DNA of 64,000 nucleotides, taken from assembly GCF_910588175.1 (NCBI RefSeq), contig NZ_CAJUQQ010000005.1; one strand, written 5' to 3'. This DNA comes from an uncultured Oscillibacter sp. Lineage in GTDB: Bacteria; Bacillota; Clostridia; Oscillospirales; Oscillospiraceae. The notes under the pieces were generated by a model. That model did no database searches and had not been told where the DNA came from. It was given only the letters and a program-made list of their open reading frames with translations. The position numbers were made by a program, and so were the translations under genes. This document shows positions 15,855-46,674 of the stretch, piece after piece; positions within the stretch are counted from its first letter, which is position 1, and each line of letters begins with the position of its first letter.

Positions 15855-17435
15855 TCAGCCGAGCAGCTGCAGCACGCCCTGGGGAACAGCGTTGGCCTGG
15901 GCCAGCATCGCCTGAGCGGACTGGATCAGGATGTTGTTCTTGGTGTAGCTCATCATTTCCTCGGCCACGTCGGTGTCGCGGATGGTGGACTCGGCGTCCT
16001 GGATGTTCTCGGCCATGACGCTCAGGTTCTTCTGCGTGTGCTCCAGGCGGTTCTGGAGAGCGCCCAGATCGCCGCGGATGCCGGAAACATAGTTGATGGC
16101 GGACTTGATCACGCTGATCGCGGAGGCCGCGCCGTCCTGGGTTCCGATGTCGATGCCGTCAATGCCCATGGCGGCGGTGTGCATATCGCCGATGGAGACC
16201 TGCATCTGGTTGTAGCTGTCGGAGGTGTCGCCGATCTGGAGCCGCAGGGGGCTGCCGGTCTTGGCGTTTCCGGAGGCAACATCATATTTGTTGTTGGCGT
16301 AGGTGATGTTCAGGCCGGTCTTCTGGGACAGCTCCTTGGCAATATGCGCATCGCCGGTAGAGGTGGCCTTGATCACATTGATGGACTTATCCGTAATTTT
16401 CGCAATAGCGTCATCGTCCGCCGCGATCACAAATTTCTGGCCGTTGATGGTGAAGACGCAGTCCTCCAGCTTGCCGTTGCCCTCGCTCTTGGTGTACAGC
16501 TTGATAGCCGAACTCTTGAAGCTGATGGCGGGGTCCTTGGCGGAGGTCTTCACGGAGACTTCCTTGTTGGCCACCGTAGAGATGGTGTTGTTGGAAGTCT
16601 TGGTGATCTGGATGGAGCCCACCTGGGGAGCGTTGAGGCCCGCCACCTTCGCGTCGAACTGGATCGTGCCGTCCGCGGGAGTGGAGATGGAGAAGTCGTT
16701 GGCCAGGTTGCCCTTGGTCTCGTTCTTGATGATGGTGGCAAACTCCGTGGCGGAGACCGCAGAGGTGGTGGTCAGGTTGTACTTGGTGCCGTTGGCGGTG
16801 GTCACATAGGTCTTATCGCTGGAGACGGTCAGCTCCACATTGGCGGACTTTCCGTTGGTCAGGCCGATGGTGATGTTCAGCTTGTCGCCGGCCTTCAGCT
16901 GAGTGGCGTTGGCAGTGAGGGCCAGAGAATACTGACCGGCAACCGCGGCGGCCTCGTCGGTGACCAGGCTGGTCTTGAAGTTGTTGATGGAGACGCTTCC
17001 GCCGTCCTTGGACATGGAGCCGTCCAGCAGGTTGATGCCGTTGAAGTTGGCGGAGTCGGCAATCCGGTTGATTTCGGTCTTGAGGGCGTCGACCTCTTTC
17101 TGGAGGTTCAGGCGGTCCACGGGATCGTCATAGGTGCCGTTGGCGGACTGGGTGGCCAGGTAGTCCATGCGGTTGAGCATGTCCTGGATTTCCTGCATGG
17201 CGCCCTCGGCGGTCTTCACCAGGGAGATGCCGTCCTTGACGTTTTTCTGGGCGGCGTTCAGGCCGGTGATCTGGGCCCGCATCTTCTCGGAAATGGCAAG
17301 GCCCGCGGCGTCGTCACCGGCGCGGTTGATCTTGTAGCCGGAGCTCAGCTTTTCCAGGTTCTTAGACAGAGCGCTGGTGTTGGTGTTGTAGTTCCGGTAG
17401 GCGTTCATCGCCATAATATTGTGCTGAATACGCAT
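15855..17435 (-). CDS. fliC: flagellin (526 aa) with a large Ser/Thr-rich central domain
   Basis: Conserved N-terminus MRIQHNIMAMNAYRNYNTNTSALSKNLEKLSSGYKINRAGDDAAGLAISEKMRAQI and C-terminus TKNNILIQSAQAMLAQANAVPQGVLQLLG. Confidence 0.95.
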   Translation of the reverse strand: MRIQHNIMAMNAYRNYNTNTSALSKNLEKLSSGYKINRAGDDAAGLAISEKMRAQITGLNAAQKNVKDGISLVKTAEGAMQEIQDMLNRMDYLATQSANGTYDDPVDRLNLQKEVDALKTEINRIADSANFNGINLLDGSMSKDGGSVSINNFKTSLVTDEAAAVAGQYSLALTANATQLKAGDKLNITIGLTNGKSANVELTVSSDKTYVTTANGTKYNLTTTSAVSATEFATIIKNETKGNLANDFSISTPADGTIQFDAKVAGLNAPQVGSIQITKTSNNTISTVANKEVSVKTSAKDPAISFKSSAIKLYTKSEGNGKLEDCVFTINGQKFVIAADDDAIAKITDKSINVIKATSTGDAHIAKELSQKTGLNITYANNKYDVASGNAKTGSPLRLQIGDTSDSYNQMQVSIGDMHTAAMGIDGIDIGTQDGAASAISVIKSAINYVSGIRGDLGALQNRLEHTQKNLSVMAENIQDAESTIRDTDVAEEMMSYTKNNILIQSAQAMLAQANAVPQGVLQLLG

Positions 17436-18333: not shown

Positions 18334-18540
18334 CGCGCCCCGCGCGCATGGGAAACGGTCCGGAAGGGCCGTTTTCCGCCCCCTGGGCGGACAGCGGACC
18401 TTCCGCCTCCAGGCAAGAGACATCCTACAACGTTGACAGAAATCATATGTCTCAGGGCCTTGGATTTTGTCACATCCTCCATTGACAGCGGCCCCGTTCC
18501 GGGTGTACGCTTTTATGCAACAAAGGAATACGGCAAACGG

Positions 18541-18830
18541 CGTTGATGGAGAAAAGTACCGGCGGGCGTTCCGCTCCAGTGAGCGGGGGACAGTGCAAAC
18601 CCCGCGCAAAGAGCCTCCGGGAAGAACACTCCGTAGCTCCAAGCTGAACCTGGGCGGAACACTCTCCCTCCCCCGGCAGTAGGCGCGGCGAGTTGTGATC
18701 GTTACCTCACACGGGCTTGTTGGAGCCTTGAAGGTGACCGCCCCCGGTGAGACGGGGAGGTAAATCAGGTGGCACCGCGGATAGCAGCTATTCGTCCTGA
18801 ATGTTCAGGAGATAGCTGCGTTTTTATTTT
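18541..18830 (+). promoter_or_regulatory. T-box leader (probable Asn specifier AAC) with a terminator/antiterminator
   Basis: Stem I start TTGATGGAGAAAAGTA. AG-bulge/distal loop CCAGTGAGC...CAGTGCAAA. Specifier region GGGAAGAACAC. T-box sequence AATCAGGTGGCACCGCGG at 18763-18780. Terminator hairpin at 18784-18819 followed by TTTTTATTTT. Confidence 0.85.
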
Positions 18831-24063: not shown

Positions 24064-24094
24064 GGGACCCGGAGCGGATATGCTCCGGGTCCCT
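24064..24094. repeat. left copy of a duplicated terminator hairpin (target-site duplication of MITE copy 1)
   Basis: GGGACCCGGAGCGGATATGCTCCGGGTCCCT is identical to 24259-24289. Confidence 0.9.
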
Positions 24095-24256
24095 CAGGCT
24101 GTCGAAAATGTCTTTTCGCCAGCCTGAGCAAGTTTTTTGGACCTTTAAAAAGTTCCAAAAAACTTCTGATTGAAAACGAGAGAAACCCCTGATGGGTTTC
24201 TCTCGTAGCTCTTTTCCTTTCCGTTCCCTTGCGGACAGCACTTTTTCGACAAGCTG
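24095..24256 (-). mobile_element. 162-bp MITE-like non-coding element, copy 1
   Basis: Its reverse complement is identical by eye to 33710-33871. Imperfect terminal inverted repeats CAGCTTGTCGAAAAAGTG / CAGGCTGTCGAAAATGTC. Three internal hairpins. No ORF. Confidence 0.85.
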
Positions 24257-24258
24257 CC

Positions 24259-24289
24259 GGGACCCGGAGCGGATATGCTCCGGGTCCCT
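24259..24289. repeat. right copy of the duplicated terminator hairpin (TSD of MITE copy 1)
   Basis: Identical 31-mer to 24064-24094. It is followed by the TTCG that complements the CGAA upstream of the left copy. Confidence 0.9.
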
Positions 24290-29487: not shown

Positions 29488-29626
29488 AGTCCTCCGCAGG
29501 CAGCTGCGGAGCCGGTCTCGCGCAATGAAGCTCTGCGAACCATGTCAGGCGGGGAACCGAGCAGCATTAAGCGGAATGTTTCATGTGCCGCGAGGCAACC
29601 GGCTCCGCAGCTGCGTGGGGAGGACT
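29488..29626 (+). ncRNA. ffs: signal recognition particle RNA (small, 4.5S-like, about 139 nt)
   Basis: Domain IV motif GTCAGGCGGGGAACCGAGCAGC...GTGCCGCGAGG parallels E. coli GUCAGGUCCGGAAGGAAGCAGC...GUGCCGGGAUG. The long terminal helix AGTCCTCCGCAGGCAGCTGCGGAGCCGGT pairs with ACCGGCTCCGCAGCTGCGTGGGGAGGACT. It has the classical position just upstream of dnaX. Confidence 0.85.
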
Positions 29627-31884: not shown

Positions 31885-33663
31885 ATGAAACGAATAAAAC
31901 GCCTTTGGGCGGCGGTCCTGGCCCTGGTTCTGCTGGCGGGCTGCGGACGGACGGAGCCCCTGCCCTACCCGGAGCCCGCCGCCTCGGAGCCGGGAAAGAC
32001 GGTTGCCTACGTCCCCCTGGACGACCGGCCGGACAACGTGGAGCGGGTGGTGTATCTGGCGGAATCCCTGGGCTATGCCCTGGCCATGCCGGAGAAGGTC
32101 CTGTACCGCACGGCCCTGGACGGCCAGCCGAAAAACTTTGACAGCCTCCAGCGGGGGGAGCCCTGGTCCCTGTTCACCTGGGTGCTGGAGCAGGAGGCGG
32201 CGGGGTGCGACCGCTACATCCTCTCCCTGGACCAGCTCCACTCCGGGGGGCTGGTGGCCTCCCGGTCTATGACCGGGTACGACATCGAGCTTCCCGGCGG
32301 CGGAACCGTCCAGATACACTCCATGCTGGAGCAGCTTTTGACGGCCCTCTCCGCCGATGAAAACAATGTGGTCTGGCTTTTGGACTCCGTCATGCGGCTG
32401 GCCCCCACCGTGGGCTACGAGGGGGGGACGCTGGAGGAATACAACGCCATCCGGGCCTTCGGGGCCCTGCCCCGGCGGACGCTGGAGGGAGACACGCTGC
32501 ATCTGGAGGCCATTGCCGAGAGTTACTGGTGGGGTCCTAATGGGGAAAACCTCCGTTCCCAGACCAGGGCGGAGGGCACCTATGAGGCCGCCCTCCGGCA
32601 CGTGCGTTCCCGGGACCGGAAAATGGTACTCTCTTATGTGGTGCAGGATACGCTGCGCAAACCCGGCTATGAGAACTTTCGCCTTTTAATCGGCATCGAC
32701 GACTCCTCCCTGGAGGACTGCATCCAGAAAAATGAGATCGCCTTCCTCCGCCGGGGCCTCCGGGCCGGGGAGGGGGAGGACGGGAGGCAGCTGGACTGGC
32801 TCCTCTCCGGGGTAGACGATCTGGCCTTCAAGGCCGTGGCCCGGATGTACCTGGACGAGACGGGCTGGCAGGGGACCAGCGTCATCGTCGATTACTTTGG
32901 CGATACCTACGACCAGCCCGCCTGTGAATACGACTTCCAGCCCCTATGGAAGATCGTGGAGGAACACAACCGGTTCTTCGATCTGCTCCCGTGCAACCAA
33001 GCCGCCGGAATGTATATTTTCATCCTGACCCAGCCCAAGGACGAAACGCAGAAGAGCGCATATATTGACCAGCTCCTCCGGGCGCTGGAGGGCAACCGGA
33101 AACAGCAGAGACCCACCATTTTGATCGACGCCAGCAACGGGACCTACGGCACGGCGGTCTACGACGCTCTGACCAAAAAGGCGGAGCTGGGCTGTCTCCT
33201 GGCCTACTCCGGCATGCTGGACATGGCCATCGTCACCGGCACGGCATTGAGCCACGGGGCCGCCCGGTACGCCGTCTTGAAAAACGGTGAGAACACCGAC
33301 GCTTGCGACCGGGCCTGGGCCCGGACCCTGGCGGACAGCGTCCTCAAGGACTTCTGCTACAAGGGCGTGGTGCGGAACGACCTGCTGACTTATATCCGAA
33401 ACGACCTGGGCGGGGACCCCAACAACTTCTGGTCCCCGGAGCTGGACCGGGAGGACCTGCTCCGCCGCCTGGAGGAAGGCATGGAGAAGGAGACCGCCCC
33501 CGTCATCCGCAATCTGGAACGGAGCTCTTTTCTCTCCTCCATCTCCCCTGACGGGGAAATTGATGAGCGGCATTGGGGCGGCATCGCCCTGGAGAACTAC
33601 CGCTTCCCCTGGGACCGGGCCTTTGAGATCGGCATGGACATCCGGCTGGGGGAGTTCCGGTGA
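31885..33663 (+). CDS. lipoprotein, DUF4127-like
   Basis: Signal peptide with lipobox LLAGC. The YVPLDDRPDN motif resembles the PLDERP signature I associate with DUF4127. The family call is tentative. Confidence 0.55.
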   Translation: MKRIKRLWAAVLALVLLAGCGRTEPLPYPEPAASEPGKTVAYVPLDDRPDNVERVVYLAESLGYALAMPEKVLYRTALDGQPKNFDSLQRGEPWSLFTWVLEQEAAGCDRYILSLDQLHSGGLVASRSMTGYDIELPGGGTVQIHSMLEQLLTALSADENNVVWLLDSVMRLAPTVGYEGGTLEEYNAIRAFGALPRRTLEGDTLHLEAIAESYWWGPNGENLRSQTRAEGTYEAALRHVRSRDRKMVLSYVVQDTLRKPGYENFRLLIGIDDSSLEDCIQKNEIAFLRRGLRAGEGEDGRQLDWLLSGVDDLAFKAVARMYLDETGWQGTSVIVDYFGDTYDQPACEYDFQPLWKIVEEHNRFFDLLPCNQAAGMYIFILTQPKDETQKSAYIDQLLRALEGNRKQQRPTILIDASNGTYGTAVYDALTKKAELGCLLAYSGMLDMAIVTGTALSHGAARYAVLKNGENTDACDRAWARTLADSVLKDFCYKGVVRNDLLTYIRNDLGGDPNNFWSPELDREDLLRRLEEGMEKETAPVIRNLERSSFLSSISPDGEIDERHWGGIALENYRFPWDRAFEIGMDIRLGEFR

Positions 33664-33682: not shown

Positions 33683-33709
33683 AGCCCGCCGTCTTTGGAC
33701 GGCGGGCTT
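33683..33709. repeat. left copy of a duplicated terminator hairpin (TSD of MITE copy 2)
   Basis: AGCCCGCCGTCTTTGGACGGCGGGCTT. The partner at 33872-33899 differs only in the loop (TTTGG versus TTTTAG). Confidence 0.85.
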
Positions 33710-33871
33710 CAGCTTGTCGAAAAAGTGCTGTCCGCAAGGGAACGGAAAGGAAAAGAGCTACGAGAGAAACCCATCAGGGGTTTCTCTCGTTTTCAATCAG
33801 AAGTTTTTTGGAACTTTTTAAAGGTCCAAAAAACTTGCTCAGGCTGGCGAAAAGACATTTTCGACAGCCTG
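33710..33871 (+). mobile_element. 162-bp MITE-like non-coding element, copy 2
   Basis: Same sequence as the reverse complement of 24095-24256. Internal hairpins at 33761-33789 (followed by TTTT), 33801-33836 and 33839-33873. Confidence 0.85.
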
Positions 33872-33899
33872 AGCCCGCCGTCTTTTAGACGGCGGGCTT
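33872..33899. repeat. right copy of the duplicated terminator hairpin (TSD of MITE copy 2)
   Basis: AGCCCGCCGTCTTTTAGACGGCGGGCTT followed by the original T-run. Confidence 0.85.
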
Positions 33900-33936: not shown

Positions 33937-34677
33937 TTACAGCTGCTTGACGGTATAGTACACCGCCAGGGCAAACACCACAACGCCCAGCACCCACATG
34001 GCGTAGTAGGCCATCGTGGCGCTGAACAGGGCCACCAGCACCGCCGCGGCGGACAAAACGGCGGCGGCGTAAATGGGCATCAGGTCCGCGTCCGCGGGGA
34101 GCAGCTTTCCCAGCTTCTTGTTCTTCGCCAGCCAGCAGATGCCGCCCAGCAGAGCCACGTAAACCACGGACAGCACCTTCACAGGGATGCCCATGGTCAG
34201 GCTGCCGAACAGGCGGCGGCACACCCAAAGCACAATCATGGTCCCGCACAGCGCCGTCAGCGCCACGGAGCACTCCCGGTCATAGAAGGCCCAGATCACG
34301 GTCAGCACCATCGCCACCGGCACCACCACGCTGAGCAGCATCACGGCGGGCTCCACGTACACCCGGGCCAGAATGCTGCCCACGGCGAAGAACGCGCCCA
34401 GAGATGTCAGCGCCCAGCCCAGAAGGCGCTTGCGCTCGTCCTTTTTCCACAGCACGCTGAGCACCGCGCCCAGAACCAGCACCGCCGCCCCCAGGCCCGC
34501 GAAAATCAGCAGGCGGTCATACCACACCAGGGCCTCGGTCACCACGTCGCCATGGATGTAGTATTTGCGGAGGACCAGCAGATAGAACTCCGCCAGGCAG
34601 GCCGCCAGAAAGAAAACCGTCGCGCCATACAGGGAATTATCCCGCTTCATAGACTTTCCATTCGGATTCTTTGCCAT
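33937..34677 (-). CDS. polytopic membrane protein of unknown function
   Basis: 246 aa with about 7 hydrophobic segments. No recognisable family. Confidence 0.6.
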   Translation of the reverse strand: MAKNPNGKSMKRDNSLYGATVFFLAACLAEFYLLVLRKYYIHGDVVTEALVWYDRLLIFAGLGAAVLVLGAVLSVLWKKDERKRLLGWALTSLGAFFAVGSILARVYVEPAVMLLSVVVPVAMVLTVIWAFYDRECSVALTALCGTMIVLWVCRRLFGSLTMGIPVKVLSVVYVALLGGICWLAKNKKLGKLLPADADLMPIYAAAVLSAAAVLVALFSATMAYYAMWVLGVVVFALAVYYTVKQL

Positions 34678-40039: not shown

Positions 40040-40211
40040 GTTAAAAACTCTCCCGTCCTACGTCCCCCACTTTTGGGGCCCCCGCAAAATCCGCAGATTT
40101 TGTGGGGAGAGGAAGAACAAACGGAACGGCGTGAAGCCTGCCCGAAGGGCGGGATTCACAAAGTGCAGTTTGTTCTGACGAGGAGCCTGCTCCCCCTTGA
40201 AGGGAGGCGGA

Positions 40212-40283
40212 GCAAGGGAGCGGGCGCAGTTCTCGCCAGAGGCCGCAGGCCGGCGGCGGGAACGGAGCTTAGCGGACTTTGCG
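40212..40283 (-). repeat. REP-like structured 3'-UTR element, copy B (after nifJ)
   Basis: mRNA sense: CGCAAAGTCCGCTAAGCTCCGTTCCCGCC...GGCGAGAACTGCGCCCGCTCCCTTGC. It has the same flanks as copy A and the same 5-nt offset from the stop codon. Confidence 0.8.
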
Positions 40284-40288
40284 ACGCC

Positions 40289-43200
40289 TCAGGCGTACAT
40301 TTCCTTCAGCTTCAGCAGGTGCTGATAGCGGTCCATAGCCGCCTTCTCGTTGCGCTGGAACAGCTCGCTGGCCCGGTCGGGGAACTCGCGGGTCAGGCGG
40401 CTGTAACGGGCCTCGTTCATCAGGAACTCCTGATACCCGCCGGCGGGCTCCTTGGAATCCAGGGTGAACTTGGCGCCCTCAGCGGCGGGATTGAAGCGGA
40501 ACAGGTTCCAGTAGCCGCACTCCACGGCCTTCTTCATTTCCGCCTGGCAGTTCATCATGCCGCCCTTGATGCTGTGCATCTCGCAGGGAGAGTAGGCGAT
40601 GATCAGGGACGGGCCGGGATAGGCCTCGGCCTCCTGAATGGCCTTGAGGGTCTGGGCGGGATTGGCGCCCATGGCCACCTGGGCCACGTAGATATAGCCG
40701 TAGCTCATGGCGATCTCCGCCAGGGATTTTTTCTTGATCTCCTTACCAGCGGCGGCGAACTGGGCCACCTGGCCGATGTTGGAGGCCTTGGAAGCCTGGC
40801 CGCCGGTGTTGGAATAGACCTCGGTATCGAAGACGAAGATGTTCACATCGTTGCCGGAGGCCAGGACGTGGTCCACGCCGCCGAAGCCGATGTCGTAAGC
40901 CCAGCCGTCGCCGCCGAAGATCCACAGAGACTTCTTGGACAGGTATTCCTTGTCCTTCAGAATCTCCAGACACAGCTTGCAGGCGTCGCAGTCGCAGTAC
41001 TTCGCGCCGCTGTCCTTCAGCTCCTTGGCGTGGGCCTGGAACTTGGGCAGCTGGTCGCCGAAGACCTTGGCGGCCTCGGGGCTTCCCGTAAAGGCCACGA
41101 TGTCATCCACGGTCATGACGCTCTCTTCCAGGAGCTTCACATACTCGCAGGTGGCCTCCGCGTTGGCCTTGCCGTCTTCCATGGTATCCAGCCACTTCTG
41201 GGCGGCGTCCTTCAAGCCCTGGTAGGTGTGGGGCACCGCGATGAGCTGCTTGGTCAGGTCCGCCAGACGGTCGCGAATGGCCTTCTGGCCCAGATACATG
41301 CCCAGGCCGTGCTCGGCGTTGTCCTCAAACAGGGAGTTGGACCAGGCGGGGCCGTGGCCGGCCGCGTTGGTGCAGTAGGGAGAGGTGGCCGCGGGTCCGC
41401 CCCAGATGGAGGAGCAGCCGGTGGCGTTGGAGATATACATCCGGTCACCGAAGAGCTGGGTGACGAGACGGGCATAGCTGGTCTCGGCGCAGCCGGCGCA
41501 GGAGCCGGAGAACTCGAGGAGGGGCTTGTGGAACTGGCTGCCGGGCACCGTGTTGTCCTGGAGATCCTTCTTCTCGGCGACCTCGGCCACGCAGTAGTTG
41601 AAGACCTCCTGCTGCTTGGCCTCCTGCTCCTGGGCCACCATCTTCAGGGCCTTCTCGCCCTTGCGGCCCGGGCAGACGCCCACGCACACGCCGCAGCCCA
41701 TGCAGTCCAGGGGAGACACGGCGATGGTAAACTTGTAGCCCTTGCCCTTGCCGGTTTTGTCGATGACCTTGGCGGCGGCGGGGAGCTTGGCGGCTTCCTC
41801 CTCCGTCATGGCGAAGGGACGGATGGTGGCATGGGGGCAGACATAGGCGCACTGGTTGCACTGGATGCAGTTCTCGGGCATCCAGGTGGGAACGGAGACG
41901 GCCACGCCGCGCTTTTCATAGGCGGCGGCGCCCAGCTCGAACTGGCCGTCGGCGTGCTTGACGAAGGCGGAGACGGGGAGGCTGTCGCCGTCCATCTTGC
42001 CCACGGGGTTCAGGATGGTCTTCACCTGCTCCACCAGCTCCGGCTTGCCGGTCAGGGTGGTGGCGTCGGGGGTATCCTGGGCGTCGGCCCAGTCGGCGGG
42101 AACCTCGAACTTCTTATAAGCCGTGGCTCCGGCGTCGATGGCCTTGTGGTTCATATCCACCACGTCCTGGCCCTTTTTCAGGTAGGAGTGGGTGGCGGCG
42201 TCCTTCATATACTGGATGGCCTCGGCCTCGGGCATGACTTTCGCCAGGGAGAAGAAGGCGGACTGAAGGATGGTGTTGGTCCGCTTGCCCATGCCGATTT
42301 CTTTCGCCAGGTCGATGGCGTTGATGGTGTAGACCTGGATGTTATTTTGGGCGATATACCGTTTCGCCACGGCGGGCATGTGCTTGTTGACTTCCTCGTC
42401 GCTCCACTGGCAGTTGATCAGGAAGGTGCCGCCGGGCTTCACGTCCCGGACCATGGGGAAGGCCTTGATGATATAGGAAGGCACGTGGCAGGCCACGAAG
42501 TCGGCCTTGTTGATATAATAAGGAGCACGGATGGGCTGATCGCCGAAGCGCAGGTGGCTGACGGTGACGCCGCCGGTCTTCTTGGAGTCGTACTGGAAGT
42601 AGGCCTGGACGTATTTGTCCGTGTGGTCGCCGATGATCTTGATGGAGTTCTTGTTGGCGCCCACGGTGCCGTCGCCGCCGAGACCCCAGAACTTGCACTC
42701 GATGGTGCCCTCCGCCGCGGTGTTGGGGGCGGGCTTCTCCTCCAGGCTGAGGTGGGTCACGTCGTCCACGATGCCGATGGTGAACTGCCGCTTGGGCTCG
42801 GCCTTGGTCAGCTCCTCATAGACGGCGAAGACGCTGCGGGGCGGGGTATCCTTGCTGCCCAGGCCGTAGCGGCCGCCGATGACGGTGACGTCCGTCCGGC
42901 CCGCGTTGGCAAGAGAGGCCACCACGTCCACGTACAGGGGCTCGCCCAGGGAGCCGGGCTCCTTGGTGCGGTCCAGCACGGCGATCTTCTTGCAGGTGGC
43001 GGGGATGGCGGAAATCAGCTTGTCGGCGCGCCAGGGGCGGTACAGACGGACCTTGATAAGGCCCACCTTTTCGCCGTGGGCGTTCATATAGTCGATGACT
43101 TCCTCGGCCACGTCGCAGATGGAGCCCATGGCGATGATGACCCGATCCGCGTCGGGAGCGCCGTAGTAGTTGAAGAGCTGGTAGTCAGTGCCCAGCTTCT

Positions 43201-46468: not shown

Positions 46469-46556
46469 GGAGAGATGTCCGAGTGGTTGAAGGAACCGGT
46501 CTTGAAAACCGGCGGCGCGCAAGTGCCCGTGGGTTCGAATCCCACTCTCTCCGCCA
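46469..46556 (+). tRNA. tRNA-Ser (anticodon UGA), CCA encoded
   Basis: Acceptor GGAGAGA/TCTCTCC. Anticodon loop CTTGAAA. Long variable arm. T-loop GGTTCGAATCC. Confidence 0.9.
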
Positions 46557-46581: not shown

Positions 46582-46674
46582 GCGGAAGTACCCAAGTGGC
46601 CGAAGGGGCTCCCCTGCTAAGGGAGTAGGCTGGATAAAACCGGCGCGAGGGTTCAAATCCCTCCTTCCGCGCCA
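46582..46674 (+). tRNA. tRNA-Ser (anticodon GCU), CCA encoded
   Basis: Acceptor GCGGAAG/CTTCCGC. Anticodon stem-loop CTCCC-CTGCTAA-GGGAG. Long variable arm. T-loop GGTTCAAATCC. Confidence 0.9.

Follow-up and report, generated by a model that had tools for sequence, protein, structure and literature searches.

The closest described relatives in behaviour of the element reported here are IS1272 and TnSha1, two members of the IS1182 family that insert into terminator hairpins without sequence specificity (PMC4923244). Both delete the stem-loop partly or wholly and leave no duplication, a process termed 'stem-loop replacement' (PMC4923244, PMC5678879). The same papers relay from Siguier et al. 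that some IS1182 members target palindromes, without detailed data (PMC4923244, PMC5678879). Our search of the full-text literature returned no detailed published account of whole-hairpin duplication in the IS1182 family. The family is reportedly listed with variable direct repeats of 0-60 bp, in ISfinder and by Siguier et al. in 2015. In a 2024 review of MITEs in prokaryotes, hairpins and IS1182 go unmentioned, and terminators are raised only as a role that MITE transcripts might play, not as insertion sites (PMC10969869).

Other mobile elements also home to extragenic palindromes near gene ends, among them the insertion sequences of REP palindromes (IS1397 and ISKpn1, and the IS110/IS1111 members ISPpu9/10) and the REPIN-RAYT system (PMC1525189). 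These elements recognise one specific repeat family, insert into the loop or at a defined position, and make a short duplication or none, whereas the MITE described here takes any GC-rich hairpin as its target and duplicates the entire hairpin.

This MITE family is previously undescribed. It resembles the staphylococcal IS1272 and TnSha1 in that terminator and other hairpins are chosen by structure and that the same hairpin receives repeated insertions in both orientations (PMC4923244, PMC5678879). It differs from stem-loop replacement in the outcome, since IS1272 removes the hairpin whereas the MITE keeps it twice. IS1272 is also autonomous, 1.9 kb long and encodes a transposase of 548-569 aa, whereas the MITE is a non-coding 162 bp. 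IS1272 can carry a duplicated terminal repeat (IS1272L), which recalls the extra copy of the terminal inverted repeat (TIR) at the right end of the MITE.

Two identical copies in an Oscillibacter contig

The window analysed here is a stretch of 64,000 nucleotides from an uncultured Oscillibacter sp. (contig NZ_CAJUQQ010000005.1). A preliminary description had reported a second, sequence-identical copy of a short element in the terminator of a DUF4127-like gene, with the whole hairpin doubled around it (27/28 bp), the two halves unlike in the loop only, and both unrelated in sequence to the hairpins around the first copy. The features concerned are these:

33710..33871, plus strand: MITE copy 2, 162 bp, non-coding, identical to the reverse complement of copy 1
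24095..24256, minus strand: MITE copy 1, identical, in inverse orientation
33683..33709: left hairpin copy (TSD) of copy 2, 27 nt, loop TTTG, AGCCCGCCGTCTTTGGACGGCGGGCTT
33872..33899: right hairpin copy of copy 2, 28 nt, loop TTTTA, AGCCCGCCGTCTTTTAGACGGCGGGCTT, with the original T-run after it
24064..24094: one copy of the copy-1 hairpin, 31 nt, AGGGACCCGGAGCATATCCGCTCCGGGTCCC, an exact 31/31 direct repeat
24259..24289: the other copy of the copy-1 hairpin, 31 nt, with 2 nt (24257-24258) between hairpin and element end
31885..33663, plus strand: DUF4127 gene (PF13552), whose terminator was hit by copy 2
33937..34677, minus strand: convergent 246-aa gene, which shares a bidirectional terminator with the DUF4127 gene

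Comparison within the window bears out the second copy: 33710-33871 (plus strand) and the reverse complement of 24095-24256 agree at 162 of 162 positions, so that the cores are fully and not just nearly identical, and the identity reaches 164 nt (33710-33873 / 24093-24256), 2 nt past the 162-nt core. Each of the 26-nt ends of the element occurs exactly twice in the window when up to three mismatches are allowed, against no matches in 100 shuffles. The stems around copy 2 match and the loops alone differ (TTTG versus TTTTA), as had been described, with an A-run before the left hairpin and a T-run after the right one. Set against the exact 31-nt repeat of copy 1, these hairpins are indeed unrelated to it in sequence. 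The DUF4127 assignment is likewise upheld by the PF13552 match. The hairpin lies between this gene and the 246-aa gene on the opposite strand and is therefore a shared bidirectional terminator, which serves the convergent gene as well. Both window insertions sit between convergent genes. At copy 1 an extra GG (24257-24258, read in element orientation) separates the left hairpin copy from the element end; it is absent at copy 2 and in most family members, and the junction varies by 0-3 nt.

The element is non-coding over its full 162 bp, the ORFs that overlap it all being spurious. Its TIRs are imperfect, 14-17 bp long and conserved across 58 aligned copies, with the family consensus GAGACTGTCGAtAAAG ... 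CTTTTTCGACACGCTG and, in the window copy, CAGCTTGTCGAAAA ... TTTTCGACAGCCTG. Its parts, given for copy 2, are:

33710..33723, plus strand: left TIR, CAGCTTGTCGAAAA, which agrees with the reverse-complemented right end at 12/14 positions
33760..33790: internal hairpin 1, GC-rich, 13 bp stem, terminator-like on the minus strand of the element
33801..33836: internal hairpin 2, A/T-rich, a near-perfect palindrome
33840..33871, plus strand: right-end fold-back, in which an internal TIR-like copy, CAGGCTGGCGAAAAG, pairs with the right TIR, TTTTCGACAGCCTG

The right-end fold-back, which occupies the last 32 nt and forms 11 pairs, is nearly invariant in the 58 copies and is the most conserved part of the family. 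RNAalifold, run on a MAFFT alignment, recovered this fold-back alone and missed the internal hairpins because subfamilies with different stems were misaligned; for the internal hairpins we used per-sequence folding. By that method hairpin 1 has a mean dG of -22 kcal/mol, compared with -9 kcal/mol in shuffles, and hairpin 2 one of -17 compared with -4 kcal/mol (53 distinct sequences). The structure of both is conserved, and their stem sequences differ among subfamilies. No Rfam 15 family matches the element, either in the window at the gathering threshold or in four related loci at E<=1.

Elsewhere in the window, the Rfam matches at the gathering threshold are a T-box leader, a bacterial small SRP RNA and two tRNAs (18534-18802; 29509-29608; 46469-46553; 46582-46671). 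A repeat search also found a GC-rich pair of 80-90 nt at 15783-15861 and 40204-40295, whose two copies share 83-88% identity and lie 24 kb from each other in the same orientation, and which may be another small repeat or leader element.

Contigs that encode an identical 246-aa protein were gathered, and they present four kinds of allele at the DUF4127 terminator. The empty allele (L134, from a mouse-gut metagenome) encodes, besides the identical 246-aa protein, the same DUF4127 protein over the part of the gene covered, and it has a single hairpin, AAAAGCCCGCCGTC-CAAA-GACGGCGGGCTTTTT, in an intergenic region of 83 nt as against 273 nt with the element. Doubled hairpins therefore do not pre-exist at this element-free orthologous locus, and the presence or absence of the element is polymorphic at exactly the DUF4127 terminator site. 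Allele A (the window, L133 and L137) has the loops TTTG and TTTTA. In allele B (L135 and L140) the same element lies within a repeat that is perfect over 28/28 positions (TTTTA/TTTTA), and a different SNP is present immediately upstream. Allele C (L136, L138, L139 and L141) has a variant of the element, with four substitutions, inserted in the opposite orientation into the same hairpin, with the loops CAAA and TAAAA. Across strains, the DUF4127 terminator hairpin is thus occupied in both orientations.

Orthologues with 88-89% identity offered no clean empty site, the locus being rearranged there. In L128-L132, whose DUF4127 proteins are 88-89% identical, only the left arm of the terminator, AAAAGCCCGCCGT, is left about 20 nt downstream of the stop codon; unrelated DNA comes next, with a histidine-kinase gene. 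This half-terminator indicates that the hairpin has also been the site of some other rearrangement or insertion.

Hairpin duplication across the element family

Plasmids of Vescimonas fastidiosa and a phage-like contig from the human gut supplied divergent relatives, at about 70-75% identity, and the phage-like contig too has a doubled hairpin, of 30 nt. A scan of one genome per species with the conserved right-end motif GGCGAAAAGACnTTTTCGACA gave at least 119 loci, nearly all of them in Oscillospiraceae (Oscillibacter, Dysosmobacter, Avoscillospira, Faecousia, Neopoerus). The element is multi-copy in many Oscillospiraceae, and many matches of the scan lie at contig ends. Three copies (L024, L043 and L068) are in a MAG labelled Bacteroidaceae bacterium isolate H07636-L1_cleanbin_000025, which reflects either mis-binning or a wider host range; the other hosts among the matches listed are Oscillospiraceae or Clostridia.

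Longer variants of 205-436 nt, also non-coding, are in some cases nested insertions and in others carry GC-rich structured inserts. Five of them (L005, L006, L150, L091 and L096, 218-336 nt) have hairpin 1, hairpin 2 or both replaced by GC-rich, apparently structured inserts that are common to several contigs (for example GGGACTGCGCCCGCAGGCGCGTTTCGGAGCG...); the inserts of L005 and L006 gave no Rfam match at E<=1. In the 398-nt copy L043 one MITE sits in the internal hairpin of a second MITE and is flanked by a 33-bp duplication of that hairpin, and the 436-nt copy L068 has a different inverted-repeat element nested within it. At the other extreme, L083 is a 40-nt mini element made of the left TIR and the right fold-back, and L036 is a solo right-end hairpin. 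A different repeat (...TTTTGCCTCATACGAAAGTTATAAAAGGGCGGGAATACTGTAT) adjoins MITE ends in three loci of Candidatus Avoscillospira stercorigallinarum (L035, L108 and L110). In L110 it stands on both sides of the MITE in inverted orientation and occurs again 4.5 kb away, and it could represent one end of another mobile element.

Among the matches listed, 91 copies have enough flanking sequence for comparison, and in 43 of these a direct repeat of at least 21 bp adjoins both ends of the ~162-bp element. All but three of these long repeats (40/43) are clean, whole GC-rich hairpins of 21-43 bp (mean 30), and the hairpin sequence is different at each of the 40 sites. The terminator-hairpin targeting proposed in the preliminary description is thereby supported by 40 independent sites in other genomes. 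The two repeats are identical in 17 of the 40 pairs; 16 of these 17 have asymmetric loops, and the duplications are therefore direct, not inverted. We measured the palindrome span by a strict Watson-Crick walk, RNAfold edges being confounded by pairing between A-run and T-run, and repeat length correlates with this span across the 40 pairs (r = 0.71). In 34 of the 40 pairs the 5' and 3' repeat edges lie equally far from the stem base to within 2 nt, which centres the duplication on the hairpin's dyad axis. About two-thirds of the sites resemble bidirectional terminators in having A-rich sequence on the 5' side and T-rich sequence on the 3' side.

The other 48 of the 91 copies are without a full duplication and have a hairpin at one end only, hairpins that differ between the ends, or short duplications that are not hairpins. 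A few non-hairpin sites have duplications of 7-10 bp, such as ACAATCA and TCATGCAAGC. This combination of long repeats at hairpins and short ones elsewhere agrees with palindrome insertion with variable repeats of the IS1182 type.

The loop difference seen in the window recurs at other insertions, since differences are confined to the loop in 9 of the 40 repeat pairs. Three of these nine are exact loop reverse-complements, and a fourth exact flip, in L039, comes with a stem mismatch; family-wide, exact flips thus number 4 of 40 pairs (L039 included), and loop-only substitutions 5 of 40. At copy 2 in the window, the left loop (TTTG) corresponds exactly to the reverse complement of CAAA, the loop at the empty site, and alleles A and C have the same two loop types in opposite orientation. 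No single inversion turns allele A into allele C.

The preliminary description had offered error-prone fill-in and later drift as possible origins of this difference. Allele B and the TTTG/CAAA complementarity favour a later change and speak against an obligatory fill-in error: allele B, which demonstrates that a perfect repeat can result from insertion, makes the loop difference probably a later change or a product of recombination, and its different upstream SNP further suggests that allele A is a recombinant. The simplest reading is that the loop flipped at a later time by way of the short inverted stems and that alleles recombined. Short inverted repeats are known to let the loop between them flip after insertion, chloroplast hairpins being one example. 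The competing view is that TTTG/TTTTA arose during insertion itself, when a gap able to form a hairpin was filled in with errors or with a template switch; it seems to us doubtful but deserves consideration. It would suit the window, where the cores are 100% identical yet the 28-nt repeat differs at two positions, and it would suit the pairing of a CAAA-type with a TAAAA-type loop in both allele A and allele C. A switch between complementary gap templates would, moreover, yield flips of the kind that recur among the loop-only differences and in L039. The evidence that weighs against it, besides known loop flipping, is that allele B carries a perfect repeat at the same insertion, with a SNP that points to recombination, and that 17 of the 40 pairs are perfect.

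Proposed mechanism and candidate transposase

We consider it probable that the element is a non-autonomous MITE, mobilised in trans by an IS1182-family DDE transposase that captures extruded or distorted palindromes and thereby duplicates whole hairpins. Such a transposase would hold two scissile phosphates a few bp apart, which on ordinary DNA would result in duplications of 7-10 bp. Were it to capture a palindrome that is extruded as a cruciform-like structure, or distorted symmetrically in some other way, the feet of the stem would become neighbours, and the stagger along the sequence would equal the whole palindrome. The two 3'-OH ends of the element would then attack both strands at the palindrome's 5' foot, and repair of the two single-stranded gaps would copy the whole hairpin to both sides.

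A published cruciform model of the IS1272 type has the stem-loop removed through attack at the 3' feet; in a variant drawn there as an undocumented possibility, attack at the 5' feet duplicates the stem-loop (PMC5678879, Fig 13). The MITE family behaves like this 5'-feet-attack variant. We tentatively extend the proposal to a reading that we hold to be less likely than not: the transposase might capture a four-way-junction-like cruciform, in the manner of a Holliday-junction resolvase, so that duplication length would read out the palindromes that extrude in living cells, the recurrent exact loop flips would be scars of a template switch between the two complementary gaps under repair, and hairpin duplication by the MITE family and hairpin deletion by IS1272 would be two polarities of one reaction. 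Spacer integration by CRISPR Cas1-Cas2 is similar in outline, with strand transfers at the borders of a palindromic unit and gap repair that duplicates the unit (the CRISPR repeat). Casposons leave a target duplication of about 14-15 bp. The MITE differs from CRISPR and casposons in having no cas1, array or leader, and in a duplication whose length and sequence are not fixed; the comparison is meant as a geometric analogy, not as membership (for casposon integration see PMC5137440).

Several points weigh against capture of palindromes by an IS1182-family enzyme. Capture as a cruciform would require stems of 10-15 bp to extrude in vivo, and positive supercoiling, as expected in the space between convergent genes, would work against this. 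A full duplication is lacking in about half of the copies, and IS1272, the characterised member of the IS1182 family, deletes the hairpin instead of duplicating it. In addition, about 0.85 Mb of host loci, IMG/VR and close protein relatives yielded no autonomous element or IS1182-like ORF.

Searches for a partner took several routes. The right-flank hairpin, sought up to 6 kb upstream, gave longer non-coding variants only, and TIR pairs 0.5-4 kb apart across all loci were neighbouring MITEs only; no multi-copy ORFs were found among the loci. Copies without a detectable left end were considered as insertion sequences and rejected, being truncated or mini elements. Scans of IMG/VR with the 16-nt TIR returned matches that are nearly all due to chance, and no partner. 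The IS1272 transposase had no Oscillospiraceae match by tblastn in 1.7 Mb of gathered sequence, and a protein search from the GC-rich IS1182 element L251 gave no partner, with Lachnospiraceae relatives dominating among the matches listed. The annotation of the first 50 kb of the Vescimonas plasmid pMM35_02 has no transposase.

As no autonomous partner was found, we compared element ends instead, and it is from these that we infer the assignment to the IS1182 family. The IS1182 seed for this comparison came from fabI plasmids, aph(3')-IIIa plasmids having yielded none. IS1272, whose end on the S. epidermidis plasmid pAMT2 reads GAGTCTGGGACATAAA, has ends that start GAGTCTG (from L215), where those of the MITE start GAGACTG or CAGGCTG. 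Six more plasmid-borne and about 20 IMG/VR elements of the family have ends of the form G[AG]GGCTGT..CA.AA, among them GAGGCTGTGACATAAG, GGGGCTGTCGCACTAA, GGGGCTGTCTCAAAAC and CAGGCTGTGTGAAAAC, with TTCTGTTGAAAAAGT for ISCfr1. The MITE ends GAGGCTGTCGATAAAG, GAGACTGTCAAAAAAC and CAGGCTGTCGAAAATG fit the IS1182-family end consensus G[AG]G.CTGT..(C)A.AA, and the terminal G[AG]G.CTGT motif is present in about 20 of the 27 IS1182-family ends read. Thus the MITE and the family (ISKpn6, ISCfr1, IS1182 and others) have a common terminal motif, G[AG]G.CTGT...AAA. Matching ends together with hairpin targeting make IS1182 the best candidate for the transposase family, which we favour by a modest degree; the link is drawn from the ends and the behaviour of the element.

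The full-length IS1182-family elements sampled from IMG/VR (L223-L254) lie mostly between a left A-run and a right T-run with no doubled hairpin, as expected after replacement of a terminator stem-loop. At L221 the inverted repeat of ISCfr1 runs on into the flanks (GGCCGATT / AATCGGCC), as if the element had inserted within a palindrome.

The same hairpin-duplicating MITE might instead be moved by a transposase outside IS1182, whether IS6-like, of the IS4/IS1634 type, of the IS1202 group or of an undescribed family, a reading that we hold to be improbable though well worth weighing. The lack of a partner fits it, as does a blastn-short comparison of 58 MITEs with 33 IS1182-family loci, in which similarity beyond the terminal 10-16 bp did not rise above chance. 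The TIR core CTGT[CT]G.AAA also resembles the ends of the IS6 family (IS257, IS26), and the ends by themselves therefore do not fix the family. Long duplications have been reported for IS1634 and IS1202, and those of the IS4/IS1634 type are intrinsically long and variable. The duplications of the IS1202 group (24-29 bp) and of IS6 (8 bp), however, are of fixed length, whereas those of the MITE range over 7-43 bp and track the hairpin (r = 0.71). The motif common to the MITE and most of the IS1182-family ends read further favours IS1182, as does the fact that sequence-independent hairpin targeting has been documented for IS1272 (PMC4923244, PMC5678879).

Two further readings would do away with a DDE transposase or with the duplication itself. 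Single-stranded transfer by an HUH (Y1) transposase (IS200/IS605, its palindrome-associated derivatives, or REPIN-RAYT), landing beside lagging-strand hairpins, would be in keeping with an element that is rich in hairpins up to its extreme right end and with the copies that have a hairpin on one side only. We nonetheless regard it as very improbable, since the clear TIRs of the MITE and its direct, variable-length target duplications are both foreign to IS200/IS605; nor did we find a conserved tetra- or pentanucleotide 5' of the left end, a fixed flanking motif, or, in the window and four related loci, a match to the omega-RNA or HEARO families of Rfam. The view that the two hairpins are pre-existing tandem terminators, a local duplication or parts of the element, with no target duplication, draws on nothing more than the bare appearance of two hairpins, and we give it practically no weight. 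It is refuted by the single hairpin of the empty allele, and the two window sites have unrelated hairpins around identical cores, just as each of the 40 other sites has a hairpin sequence of its own.

Consequences for the host and significance

Terminators made of an outward-facing hairpin and a T-run survive the insertion, beyond the element, and each of the convergent genes first meets a hairpin with just one or two T's and then the element. With the proximal hairpin deprived of most of its U-tract, the element is probably carried on the 3' UTRs of the convergent genes, unless the proximal or internal hairpins terminate transcription. An element of this kind probably lengthens the 3' UTRs of convergent genes; it duplicates their terminators, and it could be mistaken for tandem terminators or small-RNA genes. 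It also matters for the annotation of gut Oscillospiraceae in that it breaks assemblies, many copies being at contig ends.

The choice of target by DNA structure is poorly documented for DDE transposons, and for IS1182 the evidence comes from a handful of staphylococcal insertions that destroy the hairpin. Here the hairpin is preserved twice in dozens of natural insertions, so that the cut positions relative to the stem can be read. The MITE family, which is probably related to IS1182, turns structure-dependent hairpin targeting into whole-hairpin duplication. It therefore offers a ready set of substrates for the study of whether short terminator palindromes are extruded in vivo and how they are recognised by a transposase, and the natural insertions of the element record how a transposase picks its target by the shape of DNA, not by its sequence.
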